Positions 4,316 to 21,982 of a stretch of 30,769 nt of DNA are shown here, piece by piece. How positions within the stretch are numbered: the stretch's first letter is position 1; each line of letters starts with the position of its first letter. The position numbers were made by a program, and so were the translations under genes. The DNA lies in contig CAYXRV010000001.1 in the NCBI GenBank assembly GCA_964466215.1, forward strand, positions 1 to 30,769. Reading direction: 5' to 3'. The stretch comes from an uncultured Candidatus Saccharibacteria bacterium. GTDB lineage: Bacteria > Patescibacteriota > Minisyncoccia > Minisyncoccales > Staskawiczbacteraceae. The notes below the pieces were generated by a model. It did not search any database, was not told the DNA's origin, and saw nothing but the letters and a program-made list of their open reading frames with translations.

Positions 4316-5614
4316 ATGAAAATTCACTTTATCGGAATCGGCGGAATAGGCGTTTCAGGACTTGCTCAATATTATTTATCAAAGGGGCACATTGTCAGTG
4401 GGTCTGATTTGGTGTCGTCTGAAATTACAGAATTTTTAGAGGAAAAGGAGATTAAGATTACGATTGGCTCGCATTCAGAAAACAATTTAAGCAGAGATGC
4501 TAATTTGGTTATTTACAGTCCCGCGGTAAAGCCAGATAATCCAGAATACAAAAAAGCAAAAGAGTTGAATATTAAATTGCAAAGCTATCCCGAAGCCCTT
4601 GGAAATTTAACAAAACAATATTTTACAATTGCCGTTTCGGGCACTCATGGAAAAAGCACCACAACAGCAATGATTTCTCTTGTTTTGGAAAAATCGGGTC
4701 TTGACCCAACTGTTATTGTGGGCACAAAACTCAAAGAATTTGGCGATACAAATTTTAGAGCTGGTAAAAGTAAGATATTAGTAATAGAGGCAGATGAGCA
4801 TTTTGCTTCATTTTTGAATTATTGGCCAAAAATTATTGTTCTGACAAATATGGAAAAAGAGCACTTGGATTATTATAAAAATTTAAATAATATTAAAAAA
4901 ACCTACAAACAATACTTGAGCCATTTGGGCAAAGATGGTATTTTGGTAGCCAATAAAGAAGATAAAAACATCAATAAAATAGCAAAAAAGGGCAAACACG
5001 AGGTAACTTTTTACTCAATAAAACAAAAAGAATCAAAAAGATTGAAAAGAATTTTGAAAATACCGGGCAAACATAATGTTTATAATGCCTTGGCTGTTTT
5101 GACCGTGGCAAGAATTTTGGGAGTTACAGACAAAATATCTTTTGATGTTCTATCAAAATATAGAGGGTCGTGGAGAAGATTTGATTTAAAACAGAGGAGA
5201 GCTGGTGGCAAAAAAATTATAGTCATATCAGATTATGGTCATCATCCAACAGAAGTTTTGGCAACCCTAAGAGCCACAAGAGAAAAATATCCAAAGAAAA
5301 AAATCTGGTGTGTTTTTCAGCCGCATCAATATCAAAGAACATATTACTTGTTTAATAATTTTGTAAAAATATTCAGGTCGTTGGCGATAGACAACATTAT
5401 AATTGCCGATATTTATGACGTTGCCGGACGCGAAACAAAGAAAATAAATGCCGAAATAAGTTCAGAAAAATTAGTTAAAAAAATTGATAAAAATAATGTC
5501 AGATATTTTTTATTGTGCGACATAGAAAAACATATCAAAGAACATATTAAAACCGGAGAGGTTTTGATTATTATGGGTGCCGGCGATATTTATAAATTAG
5601 CCGATAAATTTTAA
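4316..5614 (+). CDS. murC: UDP-N-acetylmuramate--L-alanine ligase
   Basis: HFIGIGGIGVSGLA, GTHGKSTTT, EADE, DYGHHPTE, VFQPH and MGAGDI motifs. Confidence 0.93.
   Translation: MKIHFIGIGGIGVSGLAQYYLSKGHIVSGSDLVSSEITEFLEEKEIKITIGSHSENNLSRDANLVIYSPAVKPDNPEYKKAKELNIKLQSYPEALGNLTKQYFTIAVSGTHGKSTTTAMISLVLEKSGLDPTVIVGTKLKEFGDTNFRAGKSKILVIEADEHFASFLNYWPKIIVLTNMEKEHLDYYKNLNNIKKTYKQYLSHLGKDGILVANKEDKNINKIAKKGKHEVTFYSIKQKESKRLKRILKIPGKHNVYNALAVLTVARILGVTDKISFDVLSKYRGSWRRFDLKQRRAGGKKIIVISDYGHHPTEVLATLRATREKYPKKKIWCVFQPHQYQRTYYLFNNFVKIFRSLAIDNIIIADIYDVAGRETKKINAEISSEKLVKKIDKNNVRYFLLCDIEKHIKEHIKTGEVLIIMGAGDIYKLADKF
5510..5522 (+). repeat. 13-bp core copy (TTATTGTGCGACA) of the recurrent site, inside murC
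   Basis: Identical to the cores at 12671-12683 and 21162-21174 and to the reverse complement of 20163-20175. Confidence 0.55.
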
Positions 5615-12443: not shown

Positions 12444-14957
12444 ATGAGACTAAAGCCCACCATTTTCGAATTTACTTCATATAAATTTGACCCTATTCAA
12501 AAAAGGATTTTTTTTAATTATAAAACCGAGTTTAAAGACGGAAACACTCTTTTTTTTACAGAAACCGTAGTTTTGCCAGAAATACCCAATGTTAAAGAAT
12601 TGCCACCGGGTCTTTTAGATAAAATATTTGAGGGGCTCCATTTAGTAATAGGTGTTAGCTATTGGAAATCTTATTGTGCGACAAAAATAAGAGTAAATTA
12701 TTCTTTGTCAAAGAGTGAATCGGATTTTTGGGATACAGTTTATAGAAAGGGTTTGGGTGAATTTTTTTATAAAAATAATCTTGATACCAAAATTTCTCCA
12801 AAATTTCCATTCAAAAAAAATGTAAAAACAAATTCTTACAAATTAGAAAAAAATAATAAATGTCTTGTCGGAATAAGCGGGGGAAAGGATTCAATAGTCG
12901 CAGTAGAGATTTTGAAAGAACAGAATTTTAATGCAACAGCTTTCTTCACCGAAACCCAAAATGAATCTAGTCTTGTTAATGCAATAATAAATATAACAGG
13001 AACAAAGTCCGTAAAAATAAGAAGAATTTTAGACGAAAAATTATTTGATTATAATAAATATGCAGGCCACGTTCCAGTTTCTGCAATATATGCATTTTTA
13101 AATATTCTTTGCGCAGTTTTGTATGAATATTCTTATTGTATAGTAGCCAATGAATACAGCAGTAATTTTGGCAACACAAAACATAAAGGTGAAGTTATTA
13201 ATCATCAGTGGAGCAAATCTTCGGAATTTGAAAACTTGTTTGTAAATTACGTTAAAAATTTTATAACCCCAGATGTTCATTATTTTTCTTTGTTGCGTCC
13301 GTTCTATGAAATTCGCATAGTGGAACTTTTTTCAAAATACAAAAAATATTTTTCTTATTTTTCCAGTTGTAATAAAAATTTTATAATTAATAAAAATGGA
13401 AATGAAGTTTTGTGGTGCGGAGAATGCCCAAAGTGCGTTTTTGTTTTTATCTTGTTGTCCGCTTTTTTGTCTAAAAAAGAATTAGTCAATATATTCAATA
13501 AAAATCTTTACGAAGAAAAAAAATTGATGCCATTGTTTAAAGATGTTTTGGGTTTTGGAAAAATAAAACCATTTGATTGCGTGGGAACTTTTCAAGAAGC
13601 AAGAGTGGCTCTATATCTGGCCTCTCCAAAGTTTAAAAATAATTTAATTATTAAAACATTTTTGTCAAAAATAAAAGAGCCAAAATCTTTAATAAAAGAG
13701 GTTTTTGGCGCTAATCTTGCTCCAAATATTCCCAGCCAGTTTAGATTTTCGGGAATAAAAAATGTTTTAATTTTAGGCTATGGCAAAGAAGGAGAAGTTA
13801 CTAAAAAATATATTCAAAAAAATTATCCTAAATTAGAAATTGGAATAGCCGATATTAAATTTAGCAAGAATTACTTAGATAAACAAAAAGATTATGATTT
13901 AGCCATAAAAAGCCCCGGGATTCCAAAAAGCTATGTTAAAATTAATCATACTACCGCTACAAATATATTTTTTGCAAAAATCAAACAATTAGGGAATAAA
14001 ACAATCGGCATTACTGGGAGCAAGGGCAAAAGCACAACAACGCAACTTATATATTCAATATTAAAAGAATCTGGAAAAGATGCAAGAATCTTGGGGAACA
14101 TCGGAAATCCAATGTTGCAAGCGTTGTTGGGCCCGATTAAAAAAGGTGAGATTTTTGTATTAGAGCTTTCCAGCTATCAATTAGATGATATTGATTTTTC
14201 GCCCAATATTGCAGTGATAACTAATTTATTTCAAGAACATATGGATTACCATTCCGGCGCTGAAAACTATTACTTGGCCAAACAGAATATAATTAATTTT
14301 CAAAGTCCAAACGATATATTTATTTATAATCCAAAATACAAAAAACTTGTTTTGTGGGCAAAAAAATCTCTTTCAAGAACAATTCTATTTCCAAATAATG
14401 TTCCATTAGAAAATTCTAAAATTCCTTTGATAGGTGGGCACAATAAAGAAAATATAAAAGCCGCGATTGCAGTAGCTAATATTTTTGGTGTATCGGATGC
14501 ACTAATTAAAAAAACAATTAAAAATTTTAAAAGTCTTCCTCATAGATTAGAATTTGTGGGAGAATTTTACGGAATTAAATTCTATGACGATGGCAGCTCA
14601 ACAAATCCAGAATCGGCAATATTGGCGATTAGGGCTCTTAAAAATATTGATACAATTTTTCTCGGCGGGGAAGATAGAGGTTATGATTTTTCGCAATTGG
14701 AGAAAACAATTAAAAAGTATAAAATAAGAAATATAGTGTTATTTCCAGATAGCGGAAATAAAATTTTAAAATCCAAAAAAAATTTTAACATACTATATAC
14801 TTCCAAAATGAAAAAAGCGGTTGATTTTGCTTATAAAAATACTAAAAAAGGTAAAATATGTTTACTGTCAGGAGCGGCTCCAAGCTATTCTTTGTGGAAA
14901 AATTTTGGAGAAAAAGGAGATCAATTCCAACAAGCAGTTAATGAATTTTTTGAATAA
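12444..14957 (+). CDS. murL-murD: Fusion of MurL (UDP-MurNAc-L-Ala-L-Glu epimerase) and a MurD-type ligase
   Basis: N-half: GVSYWK, PP-loop SGGKDS, NHQWSKS, FSSCN, WCGECPKC. C-half: GITGSKGKSTT, LELSSYQL, HMDYH, LPHRLE, LLSGAAPSY. Confidence 0.8.
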   Translation: MRLKPTIFEFTSYKFDPIQKRIFFNYKTEFKDGNTLFFTETVVLPEIPNVKELPPGLLDKIFEGLHLVIGVSYWKSYCATKIRVNYSLSKSESDFWDTVYRKGLGEFFYKNNLDTKISPKFPFKKNVKTNSYKLEKNNKCLVGISGGKDSIVAVEILKEQNFNATAFFTETQNESSLVNAIINITGTKSVKIRRILDEKLFDYNKYAGHVPVSAIYAFLNILCAVLYEYSYCIVANEYSSNFGNTKHKGEVINHQWSKSSEFENLFVNYVKNFITPDVHYFSLLRPFYEIRIVELFSKYKKYFSYFSSCNKNFIINKNGNEVLWCGECPKCVFVFILLSAFLSKKELVNIFNKNLYEEKKLMPLFKDVLGFGKIKPFDCVGTFQEARVALYLASPKFKNNLIIKTFLSKIKEPKSLIKEVFGANLAPNIPSQFRFSGIKNVLILGYGKEGEVTKKYIQKNYPKLEIGIADIKFSKNYLDKQKDYDLAIKSPGIPKSYVKINHTTATNIFFAKIKQLGNKTIGITGSKGKSTTTQLIYSILKESGKDARILGNIGNPMLQALLGPIKKGEIFVLELSSYQLDDIDFSPNIAVITNLFQEHMDYHSGAENYYLAKQNIINFQSPNDIFIYNPKYKKLVLWAKKSLSRTILFPNNVPLENSKIPLIGGHNKENIKAAIAVANIFGVSDALIKKTIKNFKSLPHRLEFVGEFYGIKFYDDGSSTNPESAILAIRALKNIDTIFLGGEDRGYDFSQLEKTIKKYKIRNIVLFPDSGNKILKSKKNFNILYTSKMKKAVDFAYKNTKKGKICLLSGAAPSYSLWKNFGEKGDQFQQAVNEFFE
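12667..12686 (+). repeat. 20-bp copy (AATCTTATTGTGCGACAAAA) of the recurrent site, inside the murL domain
   Basis: Identical to 21158-21177; 19 bp identical to the reverse complement of 20161-20179. Confidence 0.8.
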
Positions 14958-19030: not shown

Positions 19031-19147
19031 GAGATGCCTTAACAGTGTCTTTGCTCTGTTGTAGTATTATATATAATGTCGCAAAATGTAGGTAAACCGA
19101 AGTAATATAGAGTATAATAGGGCACCAAGCGCCATAAAGCAAAAGTT

Positions 19148-20119
19148 ATGAAAAAGTCATCAAAACCATTAAAAGAACATTTGCACGATTTTTTAGATTA
19201 TTGTGAAGTTGAAAAAGGTTTGCGTAATAATACTCAGGAAAATTATAAAAAATATTTAGAAAAGTTTTTTTATTGGCTAAATGATACCAAAAATAGCTCT
19301 CTGCTTCCCCACCAACTGACATCCGAACACATCTGGACCTATAGATTATACCTTTCCCGCCAACCAAGCCCGGCTACGGGCAAACTGCTGTCTAAGGGTA
19401 CCCAAAACTACTATTTAATCGCTCTAAGGGCCCTTTTAGCCTATTTTGTGGCTAAAGACATACTTTCACTGCCCCCAGGCAAAATAACCCTTCCTAAGGC
19501 CGATAAAGCTCAAAAAACAGTAAAATTCCTTAGTTTAGAGCAGATTGGCAAACTTTTGGCCTCGGTTGAACCAAAAGACGCTATTTCCATCCGTGACAGG
19601 GCTATTTTGGAGAGCTTTTTTTCAACCGGTCTTAGAATCGCAGAATTAGTATCTTTGAATCTTGAGCAGTTTAACAGCTTAAAAGATAAAAAAGATATGG
19701 AGCTTGGAGTGATTGGAAAAGGAGGCAAACCGCGTGTTGTTTATTTTTCTGAACGCGCTTTAAGCTTCATAAAAAAATATCTCGAAATAAGAAATGGAAT
19801 AGAAAATGCAAACACCAAAGCCCTGTTTATAAACTTTCGTGATAAAAAAGGAAATGCAGATAACCGTCTTTCGCCAAGGTCAATTGAAAGAATGGTAAAA
19901 AAATATGCCTTGTTGTCGGGCATACCAATTTTCACAACTCCGCATACCTTGCGCCATAGTTATGCAACAGATTTATTGAACCAAGGAGTTGACTTGCGCA
20001 GTATTCAAGAATTTTTAGGCCACAGCAATATCGCCACCACCCAAATTTACACGCACGTGACAAACAAGCGTTTGCGCGATATTCATCACCAGTTTCACTC
20101 AGACCCAGATAAAAAATAA
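19148..20119 (+). CDS. XerC/XerD-family tyrosine recombinase
   Basis: N-terminal SAM-like domain; catalytic TGLRIAE, GKGGKPR, HTLRHSYAT, LGHS and TQIY (R-K-H-R-H-Y). Confidence 0.92.
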   Translation: MKKSSKPLKEHLHDFLDYCEVEKGLRNNTQENYKKYLEKFFYWLNDTKNSSLLPHQLTSEHIWTYRLYLSRQPSPATGKLLSKGTQNYYLIALRALLAYFVAKDILSLPPGKITLPKADKAQKTVKFLSLEQIGKLLASVEPKDAISIRDRAILESFFSTGLRIAELVSLNLEQFNSLKDKKDMELGVIGKGGKPRVVYFSERALSFIKKYLEIRNGIENANTKALFINFRDKKGNADNRLSPRSIERMVKKYALLSGIPIFTTPHTLRHSYATDLLNQGVDLRSIQEFLGHSNIATTQIYTHVTNKRLRDIHHQFHSDPDKK

Positions 20120-20160
20120 GAGGTTGTAAACATCGTTAATATTAATTTTATTTACCATAA

Positions 20161-20182
20161 TTTGTCGCACAATAAGATTATT
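20161..20182 (-). repeat. 22-bp site, left member of a perfect inverted pair
   Basis: TTTGTCGCACAATAAGATTATT is the exact reverse complement of 21155-21176. Confidence 0.85.
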
Positions 20183-20184
20183 GC

Positions 20185-20214
20185 AAAATAAAACCGCCAA
20201 TGTTGCTTGGCGGT
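20185..20214 (-). terminator. Intrinsic terminator of the 20229-20489 ORF
   Basis: ACCGCCAA/TTGGCGGT stem (20193-20214) with an A-rich left flank. Confidence 0.7.
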
Positions 20215-20228
20215 ATGCCTTGCTTGGT

Positions 20229-20489
20229 TTACCCTTTGAGAAATTCTGTGTCAATTCCACATGACAAAAGTTCGGCTTGAATGGTGGCGGGAAATGGTAC
20301 GCAGGTTTTATTAGTTTTTGATTCCATACGTCGTAAAATTTCGGCACTTAAATGAAAAATTTTTTTGCGCAGAATTCCACAAAGTCCCGTAGTATTTACC
20401 TGCGCTATTATTTGTACTAATTTTTTAATCAGTTTTTCATTGGACATTTCCGCTAATTCATTTATGAATTCTTCCAGATGATTTGTCAT
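20229..20489 (-). CDS. Small hypothetical protein
   Basis: 86 aa; GGAG 7 nt before ATG; own promoter and terminator. Confidence 0.65.
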   Translation of the reverse strand: MTNHLEEFINELAEMSNEKLIKKLVQIIAQVNTTGLCGILRKKIFHLSAEILRRMESKTNKTCVPFPATIQAELLSCGIDTEFLKG

Positions 20490-20534
20490 TGTTTTTTCTC
20501 CGGATAAAGTTTTGAGATGAAAGGTTCTGATTGT

Positions 20535-20563
20535 TTTATATCACAGTAATATTTAAATTTCAA
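20535..20563 (-). promoter_or_regulatory. Sigma70-type promoter for the 20229-20489 ORF
   Basis: TTGAAA (20563-20558), 17 nt, TATAAA (20540-20535) with extended TG. Confidence 0.6.
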
Positions 20564-20566
20564 CTA

Positions 20567-20595
20567 TTGTCGCACAATTAGATATTTAGTATAAT
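20567..20595 (+). promoter_or_regulatory. Promoter of the LAGLIDADG-like gene, overlapped by a degenerate copy of the recurrent site
   Basis: TTGTCG (20567-20572), 17 nt, TATAAT (20590-20595); 20567-20586 reads TTGTCGCACAATTAGATATT. Confidence 0.55.
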
Positions 20596-20619
20596 TAACT
20601 TGCGTTAAAATAATATATT

Positions 20620-21117
20620 ATGCCAGTAAAAAATAATATTAATATTCCGGCGTTAGTTAACAAAGAAGGATGCTTTGATTTGCAGTTTAGAAAAGACACA
20701 AGGAGCGAGCGAACCGGCGCGCCGACATATTACAGATGGAAAATTCAGTTTGTTGTTACCGGCCCAAAAGAAAAAGAGAAGATGTTTAAAATTGTTAAAG
20801 GTGTGATTGGTTGCGGAGATGTTTGCATCACAAAAGACCAGGCCAGATATTCGGTGCAAAAAATTGATGATATAAATAATATGGTTGTGCCTTTTTTTCG
20901 GAAAAATCAGCTGGCTGATAAAAAGAAAAGAGACTTTGAATTGTGGCAAAGAGCGGTTGATATTATATATAAAAATAAAGGCAAATATCTTGTAAAATGG
21001 AAAAAAAACGACCTACTCTCTTTAATTGAAATTCAAAAATCGGCGGCAAAATACAAAAATAAACCAAAACAGCCAAAATGGATAAAAATGGCGCAAGCGT
21101 TGGCTAAGACGCTTTAA
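20620..21117 (+). CDS. Free-standing, degenerate single-motif LAGLIDADG-fold protein
   Basis: IPALVNKEGCFDL aligns with the LAGxxDGEGxFxx motif; downstream GCG, ARYSV, VPFF and K-K-x-DFELW pattern of LAGLIDADG endonucleases. Confidence 0.7.
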   Translation: MPVKNNINIPALVNKEGCFDLQFRKDTRSERTGAPTYYRWKIQFVVTGPKEKEKMFKIVKGVIGCGDVCITKDQARYSVQKIDDINNMVVPFFRKNQLADKKKRDFELWQRAVDIIYKNKGKYLVKWKKNDLLSLIEIQKSAAKYKNKPKQPKWIKMAQALAKTL

Positions 21118-21154
21118 TTTAGCGCTCGCTTCCCTACTCCGGCGTGTTTCCTAT

Positions 21155-21176
21155 AATAATCTTATTGTGCGACAAA
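21155..21176 (+). repeat. 22-bp site, right member of the perfect inverted pair
   Basis: AATAATCTTATTGTGCGACAAA. Confidence 0.85.
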
Positions 21177-21178
21177 AC

Positions 21179-21204
21179 AAAACCGACAAAAATGTCGGTT
21201 TTTT
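21179..21204. terminator. Bidirectional intrinsic terminator between the LAGLIDADG-like gene and uppS
   Basis: AAAACCGACA-AAAA-TGTCGGTTTT-TT. Confidence 0.75.
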
Positions 21205-21212
21205 AATTTTAG

Positions 21213-21284
21213 GCGGAAATAAGGATATTTTTCAACACGCCTCGCCCACAGCCAGCCCGAATTGAAAAATATCCCCATTTCCGC
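21213..21284 (-). repeat. 72-bp imperfect palindrome, copy 1 (24-bp stem, 24-nt G-tract loop)
   Basis: 63/72 identical to 22143-22214; on the minus strand the arms pair at 24/24 positions with 3 G-U/T pairs. Confidence 0.85.
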
Positions 21285-21295
21285 TTTTTATATGA

Positions 21296-21982
21296 TTACT
21301 TTCCGAATCTGCGAGCGCGGCGATTGAATTCTTCCAGAGCCAAGTCTAAATCTTGTTCTGTGAAATCGGGCCAAAGTTTTGGTGAAAAATATAATTCAGA
21401 ATAAGCGGCTTGCCATAAAACAAAATTAGACAATCTCATTTCTCCTCCGGCTCTTATTATTAAATCCGGAGCTGGCAGGCCATTTGTGGATAAGTAATTT
21501 TCAAATAATTTTTCGTCAATTTTTTCTGCTGGTATTTTCTCTTCTATTATTTTTTTTACTGCTTGCAAAATATCCCATTTTCCGCCATAGCTTATAGCCA
21601 AGTTCAAATTAAGGCTTGAGTTTTTGACTGTGGATTCTTCGGTTGTTTTTATGACTTTTTGCAGAGACTCCGGCAGTCTTTCTTTTTGCCCAATTATTCT
21701 TACCCTTACGCCGTCTTGATTATATTTTTCCAAATTATCAACGAGGCATTTTTCCAACAGTTTCATTAAGTAATTAACTTCTTCTTCTGACCTTGACCAG
21801 TTTTCTGTTGAAAACCCAAAAGCGGTAAGCGCTTTCACTCCCCTATTTTTGCACCATTCAGAAAAATCAACCAGATTTTTATATCCCTGCATATGGCCAT
21901 CCAAAGAAGCTATGCCTTTTTGTTTTGCCCAGCGTCGGTTGCCGTCAGGAAATAAAACAATATGTTGTGGTATGTGTTCCAT
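21296..21982 (-). CDS. uppS: Undecaprenyl diphosphate synthase (cis-prenyltransferase)
   Basis: DGNRRWA, FSTENWSR, AISYGG, PDLIIRAGGEMRLSNFVLWQ, RRFG. Confidence 0.95.
   Translation of the reverse strand: MEHIPQHIVLFPDGNRRWAKQKGIASLDGHMQGYKNLVDFSEWCKNRGVKALTAFGFSTENWSRSEEEVNYLMKLLEKCLVDNLEKYNQDGVRVRIIGQKERLPESLQKVIKTTEESTVKNSSLNLNLAISYGGKWDILQAVKKIIEEKIPAEKIDEKLFENYLSTNGLPAPDLIIRAGGEMRLSNFVLWQAAYSELYFSPKLWPDFTEQDLDLALEEFNRRARRFGK

Follow-up and report, generated by a model that had tools for sequence, protein, structure and literature searches.

A strand-polar array of dif-arm-like sites around the terminus of Staskawiczbacteraceae chromosomes, with a LAGLIDADG protein as its candidate reader

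Introduction

Tus-Ter in Escherichia coli and RTP-Ter in Bacillus subtilis let replication forks into the terminus zone but not out of it, and, to our knowledge, dedicated fork traps are known from only these two unrelated proteins, in narrow bacterial groups. Here we analyze a stretch of 30,769 nt (hereafter the window: positions 1 to 30,769 of contig CAYXRV010000001.1, GenBank assembly GCA_964466215.1) from an uncultured Candidatus Saccharibacteria bacterium of the family Staskawiczbacteraceae, in which a 22-bp inverted repeat encloses a gene for a 165-aa LAGLIDADG protein and a divergent open reading frame (ORF) of 86 aa, while a third copy of the repeat lies over the promoter of the LAGLIDADG gene. 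Whether other bacteria control the end point of replication is an open question (PMC10331603, PMC6549158); the initial annotation of this DNA had pointed out that Tus and RTP each control their own expression, by way of a ter site within the promoter of the gene, and the literature bears this out (PMC10331603). We find that all three copies of the 22-mer belong to a larger, chromosome-wide array of short sites with strand polarity, and that the LAGLIDADG protein is the best-supported candidate for its reader.

KOPS (FtsK-orienting polar sequences), another class of oriented chromosomal site, are 8-mers that occur at high density over the whole chromosome. Among LAGLIDADG proteins, the DNA-binding regulator WhiA, a domesticated form, combines two LAGLIDADG domains with a helix-turn-helix and has no acidic catalytic residues, and a homodimeric LAGLIDADG protein is expected to recognize about 22 bp composed of two half-sites. 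In B. subtilis, the terminus region contains dif-like XerD-binding sites (XDS), which are described as unloading Smc-ScpAB in a passage of PMC11840125 that quotes Karaboja et al. 2021.

The array described below resembles Tus-Ter and RTP-Ter in consisting of some 10 to 25 asymmetric sites, arranged in two opposed groups that flank the terminus and dif, and in having the gene of the presumed binder beside an inner site, with a site in its promoter. It differs in the fold of the candidate binder, which is LAGLIDADG here and resembles neither Tus nor the winged-helix RTP (five genomes gave no hit to the Tus family, PF05472, and RTP was not searched for); in that its sites derive from an arm of dif, the innermost lying within about 1 kb of dif itself; and in that orientation-dependent fork arrest is here suggested by analogy. 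With XDS, the array shares the concentration of extra dif-like, one-armed sites at the terminus and the adjoining Xer/dif system; in contrast to XDS, it is strictly polar, larger, and co-varies with the LAGLIDADG gene rather than with Xer, in a family of which five genomes yielded no Smc hinge or ScpA (see Discussion).

Results

The 22-bp repeat belongs to a genome-wide family of short asymmetric sites

The perfect inverted repeat around two genes and the third copy at the promoter, both of which the initial annotation had described, are confirmed by coordinates and matches: the arms at 20161-20182 and 21155-21176 are 100% complementary with a spacing of 972 nt, and the copy at 20567-20583 matches 16 of 17 bases of the left arm in direct orientation. 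A 17-mer search allowing up to three mismatches gave six matches in the window against 0.12 expected, and the copies are thus not due to chance; one of the six is an exact copy at 12668-12684, within a coding sequence. The copies that carry the conserved core are as follows.

5512-5522, minus strand: polar motif copy TGTCGCACAAT, within the coding sequence 4316-5614 and antisense to that gene
12673-12683, minus strand: polar motif copy within the 837-aa coding sequence 12444-14957; 20 nt are identical to the right arm of the inverted repeat
20161-20182, plus strand: left arm of the inverted repeat, a polar motif copy with its core at 20163-20173
20568-20578: core of the polar motif copy that forms the -35 element and spacer of the LAGLIDADG promoter
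21155-21176, minus strand: right arm of the inverted repeat, a polar motif copy with its core at 21164-21174, between the stop codon of the LAGLIDADG gene and its terminator

At the genome level, the corresponding 12-mer occurs exactly 10 times in the 374-kb draft genome of the host, where it forms the second most over-represented word family, and it is present in 22 of 24 genomes of the host family versus 1 of 16 from other families (a reversed-pattern control gave 0 hits). Information content over 40 sites delimits a conserved element of approximately 13 to 14 bp, ttTGTCGCAYAATAaa, with the core TGTCGCAYAAT; the element is asymmetric, and these 40 sites show no second half-site and no signal past about 13 bp. 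The full 22-bp length is a property of the local copies in the host genome only. The site is thus not the private 22-bp pseudo-palindrome that had been proposed for the LAGLIDADG protein: the conserved element is asymmetric and about 13 bp long, and each genome carries 10 to 28 copies in a polar array.

The sites are polar with respect to dif and crowd around the terminus

The polar terminus array is solid. In seven contigs (G019:C1, G023:C1, G012:C2, G017:C3, G018:C7, G053:C1 and the window), one strand switch accounts for 89 of 92 copies, which lie on the minus strand to its left and on the plus strand to its right, so that the motif read 5' to 3' points away from dif. In two near-complete relatives, G023 and G053, the switch coincides with a dif-like site and lies roughly opposite dnaA. 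On the 737,971-bp contig of G023, the switch falls between 194,491 and 196,089, with dif at 195,563, the cumulative GC-skew maximum at 196,000, a flip of gene orientation at the same place, and dnaA at 578.6 kb; all 13 exact copies lie between -36 and +124 kb of dif and become thinner with distance. On the single 661,750-bp contig of G053, seven minus-strand copies are followed by dif at 471,872 and then by seven plus-strand copies; dnaA lies at 185.7 kb, and the slope of the skew breaks at approximately 470 kb; the switch lies on a plateau about 20 kb from the skew maximum at 492 kb. In the window, cumulative GC skew peaks at about 20 kb and the genes converge there. These positions, together with the dif-like site described below, uphold the earlier placement of the locus at the terminus beside xer and dif.

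Orientation is unlikely to be a by-product of gene orientation. The copy at 411441 in G053, the sole copy found inside a minority-strand gene, has the orientation of its replichore and not of its gene, and the copies at the LAGLIDADG promoter likewise follow the replichore rather than the direction of the gene. The right arm of the inverted repeat is the only local exception to the polarity rule in the window.

Most copies lie within coding sequences in arbitrary frames. The copies at 5512 and 12673 fall in different reading frames, which implies conservation at the level of DNA and leads us to reject protein-level conservation as the cause of the copies in coding sequences. The 837-aa ORF tolerates its exact 20-nt copy of the repeat arm at codons for KSYCATK, and polar sites within essential-looking coding sequences are common in relatives. 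The reading of the motif as a general promoter is rejected, since a -10 element stands at the right distance only for the copy before the LAGLIDADG gene and the interior of coding sequences holds most copies. A DNA-uptake sequence or Chi-like word is rejected as well: the density is too low, and the copies are restricted to the terminus region. As a separate observation, genome G016 has three tandem motif copies with 16-bp spacing (G016:C2:1309-1351) and three copies upstream of its LAGLIDADG gene that are 19 and 60 bp apart (G016:C11:870-960), with spacings tighter than a 22-bp LAGLIDADG footprint would permit.

The motif is a near-copy of an arm of dif

Upstream of xer, the window contains a dif-like 28-mer that is single-copy in each genome and conserved across the host order. 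Its left arm, TGTCGCAAAAT, is one base off the polar motif in the host family, and the motif TGTCGCAYAAT is identical to the dif arm of several other families. Judged by these sequences, the motif is an old derivative of the Xer (dif) arm, a kinship that the initial annotation had missed. The deviation falls at position 8 in the host family, where 92 of 92 polar sites have Y and the dif arm has A; in G040 and G256 it falls at position 6. Altogether, the dif arm is one base off the motif in the 21 gene-bearing genomes with a recognizable TGTCGC-type dif arm, and most of the inspected genomes that are gene-less ("gene" here meaning the LAGLIDADG gene) have a dif arm identical to the motif. In the gene-less genomes G028, G033 and G036, a search for flanking half-sites that would co-vary with their diverged dif turned up no repeated arm within 1.5 kb. 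An alternative placement of dif at 20150-20189 is not supported, the conserved single-copy dif-like site being the one at 19076-19103.

Some gene-less genomes depart from the usual arrangement of dif and xer. G253 has two dif-like loci (L114 on G253:C22 and L115 on G253:C4), each flanked by outward-pointing sites of the TAAATGTCGCACAATATTA type; xer is present at only one of them, and the genome could hold a second replicon or be a mixed bin. At L052/L054 (G007:C8) and L053/L055 (G014:C16), both from gene-less members of the host family, xer is extended to 439-456 aa by an unrelated C-terminal part, and a second xer paralogue (314-317 aa) follows in tandem.

Three sites frame the LAGLIDADG gene and its promoter

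The remaining features of the locus, from dif to uppS, are as follows.

19076-19103, plus strand: dif-like 28-mer (11-6-11), single copy, just upstream of xer
19148-20119, plus strand: xer, an Xer-type tyrosine recombinase gene (Pfam Phage_integrase, E 6e-39, with an N-terminal SAM-like domain)
20193-20214: the 86-aa ORF's own terminator
20229-20489, minus strand: orphan 86-aa ORF, between the distal and proximal sites
20567-20595, plus strand: promoter of the LAGLIDADG gene (TTGTCG, 17 nt, TATAAT), 25 nt upstream of the ATG at 20620
20620-21117, plus strand: LAGLIDADG gene, 165 aa, whose product is the proposed motif reader
21179-21202, bidirectional: intrinsic-terminator hairpin that closes the LAGLIDADG unit
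21296-21982: uppS, downstream of the LAGLIDADG gene

The LAGLIDADG gene is transcribed away from dif and head-on to replication, and the polar motif copy before it supplies both the -35 element, TTGTCG, and the spacer of its promoter. The left arm of the inverted repeat is the counterpart of the distal site of a tandem pair found upstream of the gene in relatives, where a second site often lies 23-41 bp upstream of the promoter site; the two promoter-proximal copies that stand around the 86-aa ORF in the window are only this far apart in those relatives. The ORF itself falls into no Pfam family, and no homologue of it was found in the 73 further genomes of the host family. Most loci also have a site downstream of the LAGLIDADG gene; it is inverted in genus g1 and in G013, and direct elsewhere.

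A mobile element with 22-bp terminal inverted repeats is rejected as an explanation of this layout: what look like its ends belong to a motif found all over the genome, the LAGLIDADG gene keeps its syntenic place in more than 60 genomes, and the 86-aa ORF is an orphan. Inversion of the segment by the adjacent recombinase likewise finds no support, the sites being one-armed. Directly 3' of the LAGLIDADG terminator lies one copy of a hairpin repeat of about 73 nt (21212-21284, with stem arms GCGGAAATAAGGATATTTTTCAA and TTGAAAAATATCC..TTTCCGC around a GC-rich loop), a family of approximately 10 copies that forms the most over-represented long word set of the host genome.

The LAGLIDADG protein is syntenic, with an invariant sheet and a variable catalytic position

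The 165-aa protein matches Pfam LAGLIDADG_1 (PF00961) over residues 16-112 with 41.1 bits against a cut-off of 23.1. An alignment profile compared with the PDB retrieves I-OnuI-family enzymes (E 1.6e-21), and its nearest sequence relatives are the single domains of these enzymes. AlphaFold2 confidently predicts one LAGLIDADG domain, extended at the C terminus by a basic helical tail (mean predicted local distance difference test score, pLDDT, 86; predicted template-modeling score, pTM, 0.80); the predicted model has the I-CreI-like alpha-beta-beta-alpha-beta-beta-alpha fold, and Foldseek places it nearest to I-TnaI (5gkk; E 1.8e-9, TM 0.70/0.78) and I-CreI, with many I-CreI variants among its matches. 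The eroded protein motif reported by the initial annotation holds up in part: degeneracy is seen in the LAGLIDADG helix (IPALVNKEG), but the protein retains an acid at its catalytic position (E16) as well as the active-site lysine K102, and "eroded" is therefore only partly right. Across 129 homologues, about 17 residues, mostly in the beta-sheet, are 100% invariant, whereas the catalytic position is D or E in 115 of the 129 and N, S, G, Y, K, Q, T, A or I in the rest (approximately 11%); G053, which has a full array, is among the genomes in which the acid has been replaced. Sequence-specific DNA binding, and not cleavage, is probably what is conserved in this protein, this being the best explanation of the pattern of invariance.

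The gene lies outside any intron or intein, as had been noted, and sits between xer and uppS. The order xer-LAGLIDADG-uppS holds in most of 12 fetched loci from several genera, and 66 of the 74 host-family genomes have the gene, with one more copy cut off at a contig end; it is directed away from dif in 14 of the 14 cases in which both are on one contig. A site overlaps the -35 element of a TTGTCG-17-TATAAT-type promoter in most of the 12 loci (L002 and L003 excepted) and in G023, and thus in most genera looked at. This fixed synteny differs from the intron-borne, intein-borne or sporadic occurrence of selfish endonuclease genes, and the comparison across genomes shows a vertically inherited gene that is not that of a mobile homing endonuclease, in support of the initial annotation.

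Set beside I-CreI and I-TnaI, the protein shares the LAGLIDADG_1 match, the predicted fold, a similar size and the K102 lysine, and for its own part keeps E16; it differs in its genomic setting, in the replacement of the acid in part of its homologues beside an invariant sheet, and in having a putative target that occurs many times in the host genome. With WhiA it would share the reuse of a LAGLIDADG scaffold for non-cleaving, sequence-specific DNA binding in chromosome biology, as a single domain with a basic tail in place of the architecture of WhiA.

Gene and array largely come and go together

The initial annotation had suggested checking whether the gene and the motif co-occur, and largely they do, with exceptions that we take up in the Discussion. 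At least seven exact copies were seen only in orthologue-bearing genomes of the host family. Within the host genus, G001 and G003 have no LAGLIDADG gene, xer abuts uppS, dif is unchanged, and 1-4 sites are left. G007 and G064, also gene-less, have 0-2 sites. In family f35, G206 and G109 each have a single Xer of another type (34-35% identity) and the dif arms GTGCGTATAAT and TTGAGTATAAT, and they retain TGTCGCACAAT beside the orthologue in the order minus-minus, dif, plus; G233 of the same family has neither an orthologue nor any site.

The sites themselves also fall into two classes. The gene-less class (29 sites in 17 genomes, G001 and G007 among them) has the form TAAATGTCGCACAATATTA, with A at position -1 in 28 of 29 and T at position +13 in 26 of 29. 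In the gene-bearing class, 66 sites from the host family read ttTGTCGCAYAATAaaat, with T at position -1 in 44 of 66 and A at position +13 in 46 of 66.

Two loci show further variation around the gene. The distant orthologue at G126:C2:15311-15820 adjoins xer and keeps a canonical FVDGEGCF; it may be a still-active endonuclease form. In G023 (G023:C1:189464-195563), xer and the LAGLIDADG gene are separated by 2-3 extra genes, and a motif copy comes after each of these, which hints at the insertion of modules at sites.

Discussion

The reading that we favor, with a probability of roughly one half, is that a domesticated, self-regulated LAGLIDADG protein reads the polar terminus array in a manner similar to Tus and RTP. 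This upholds part of the initial interpretation and widens it considerably. Such a protein would bind the polar sites, would act on the copy at its -35 element to repress its own promoter, and, by binding asymmetrically, would give the terminus a directionality whose likeliest form is a barrier that lets forks enter the dif zone but not leave it. That the LAGLIDADG protein is the reader is the best-supported component of this proposal, and one that we consider rather probable given the co-variation, promoter overlap and invariant sheet; fork trapping would, by analogy, be the most likely function. We advance more tentatively, as possible and not as probable, the fuller scenario of a third, independently evolved replication-terminator system in which a homing endonuclease that formerly targeted the dif arm turned into a polar barrier protein that does not cleave (or only nicks), its sites became more numerous on either side of dif, where they confine fork fusion to the dif zone in Smc-less bacteria of the Candidate Phyla Radiation (CPR), and dif escaped recognition by a one-base change.

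Several observations weigh against this proposal. Only about 13 bp are conserved, against the approximately 22 bp and two half-sites expected for a homodimeric LAGLIDADG protein, and tandem copies in G016 stand only 16 bp apart. The right arm of the inverted repeat (21164, minus strand) is wrongly oriented for a simple trap. Most homologues retain the catalytic acid and the active-site lysine, and the protein may nick or cleave. Many gene-less genomes of the host order hold 2-6 copies, as a rule with dif-xer enclosed by two that point outward, which means that the motif can exist without the LAGLIDADG protein, and orthologue-bearing genomes outside the host family hold only 0-6 copies. Genome G091 has a full array of 15-19 copies of the gene-bearing class, and no LAGLIDADG gene was detected in it; another gene immediately follows xer there, which is not the position of the LAGLIDADG gene in G023 of the same genus. 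(G049 is also gene-less, but its assembly lacks the dif locus too.) Finally, the distant orthologue in G126 has no motif within 60 kb; orthologues without a nearby motif, which the initial annotation had named as evidence against its idea, were represented by this locus alone among approximately 20 inspected.

The motif is nearly the Xer arm of dif, which makes Xer a natural and obvious alternative reader, and we treat it as a serious rival, if a less probable one. On this account the sites are one-armed Xer sites (half-dif) read by the Xer recombinase, and the LAGLIDADG gene is a parked, formerly selfish endonuclease gene that inserted beside the conserved site that follows xer and does no more than exploit this site or come under its control. 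The identity of motif and dif arm in other families, the length of 11-13 bp, which fits one recombinase arm, the outward copies that flank dif-xer in gene-less genomes of at least 10 families, the full array of G091, and the dif-like XerD-binding sites that the quoted portion of PMC11840125 places in the terminus region of B. subtilis are all consistent with it. An Xer reader fits poorly with G206 and G109, which keep TGTCGCACAAT beside the orthologue despite another Xer type and different dif arms, and with the host genus, where loss of the gene accompanies loss of the array while Xer and dif are unchanged. It also leaves unaccounted for the restriction of at least seven exact copies to orthologue-bearing genomes of the host family, the different site flanks in genomes with and without the gene, and the invariance of the LAGLIDADG DNA-contact sheet; nor would a single reader need the split at position 8 between the Y of the polar sites and the A of the dif arm.

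Compatible with either reader is the view that the sites are junctions for the exchange of gene modules, comparable to dif modules or integrative mobile elements exploiting Xer (IMEX), at which small cassettes are inserted and exchanged by recombination or nicking, the 86-aa ORF being one example and the LAGLIDADG gene, at its origin, another. The 86-aa ORF lies exactly between two direct copies that are closely spaced in relatives, the copy-flanked LAGLIDADG gene occupies the place of a single site in gene-less relatives, the extra genes of G023 each have a site after them, and the catalytic acid is kept in most homologues. We nevertheless consider module exchange an unlikely account of the array, although it may occur at the sites as a side effect: the sites are one-armed with no conserved spacer, and canonical Xer recombination is therefore not expected; modules bounded by two-armed Xer sites, as in dif modules and IMEX, were not found, and apart from the 86-aa ORF nothing in the window looks like a module; the majority of copies are found, as far as 100-200 kb from dif, within core coding sequences that are intact and hold no insertion; and polarity and crowding at the terminus are left unexplained. 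More doubtful still is the notion that the array is a translocase signal independent of the LAGLIDADG protein, either KOPS-like, directing FtsK toward dif, or XDS-like, unloading SMC. The copies are indeed polar relative to dif and denser toward it, and an FtsK with a gamma domain is encoded in five of the five genomes tested. A KOPS-type guide would call for a shorter and denser word: this one has 11-13 bp and 13-28 copies, nearly all of them no farther than about 125 kb from dif. SMC unloading is unlikely, given that SMC_hinge (PF06470) and ScpA (PF02616) were not found in G000, G023, G053, G012 and G019, four of which are 98-100% complete; control searches with these two families were positive in 10 and 9 of 14 genomes, respectively. 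Both forms leave unexplained the overlap with the LAGLIDADG promoter and the joint loss of gene and array.

The literature that we searched contained no paper linking LAGLIDADG proteins with replication termination and no description of dif or terminus motifs in CPR bacteria. What these genomes add is a polar terminus array shared across a family of ultra-small, Smc-less bacteria, a candidate reader that would bring in a third fold, and a system in which one small protein and a 13-bp site make the question of termination control testable. If the proposal that the LAGLIDADG protein reads this array is true, it would clearly illustrate how a selfish homing endonuclease can be recruited to chromosome maintenance, and also how a dif site can evolve to avoid that protein.

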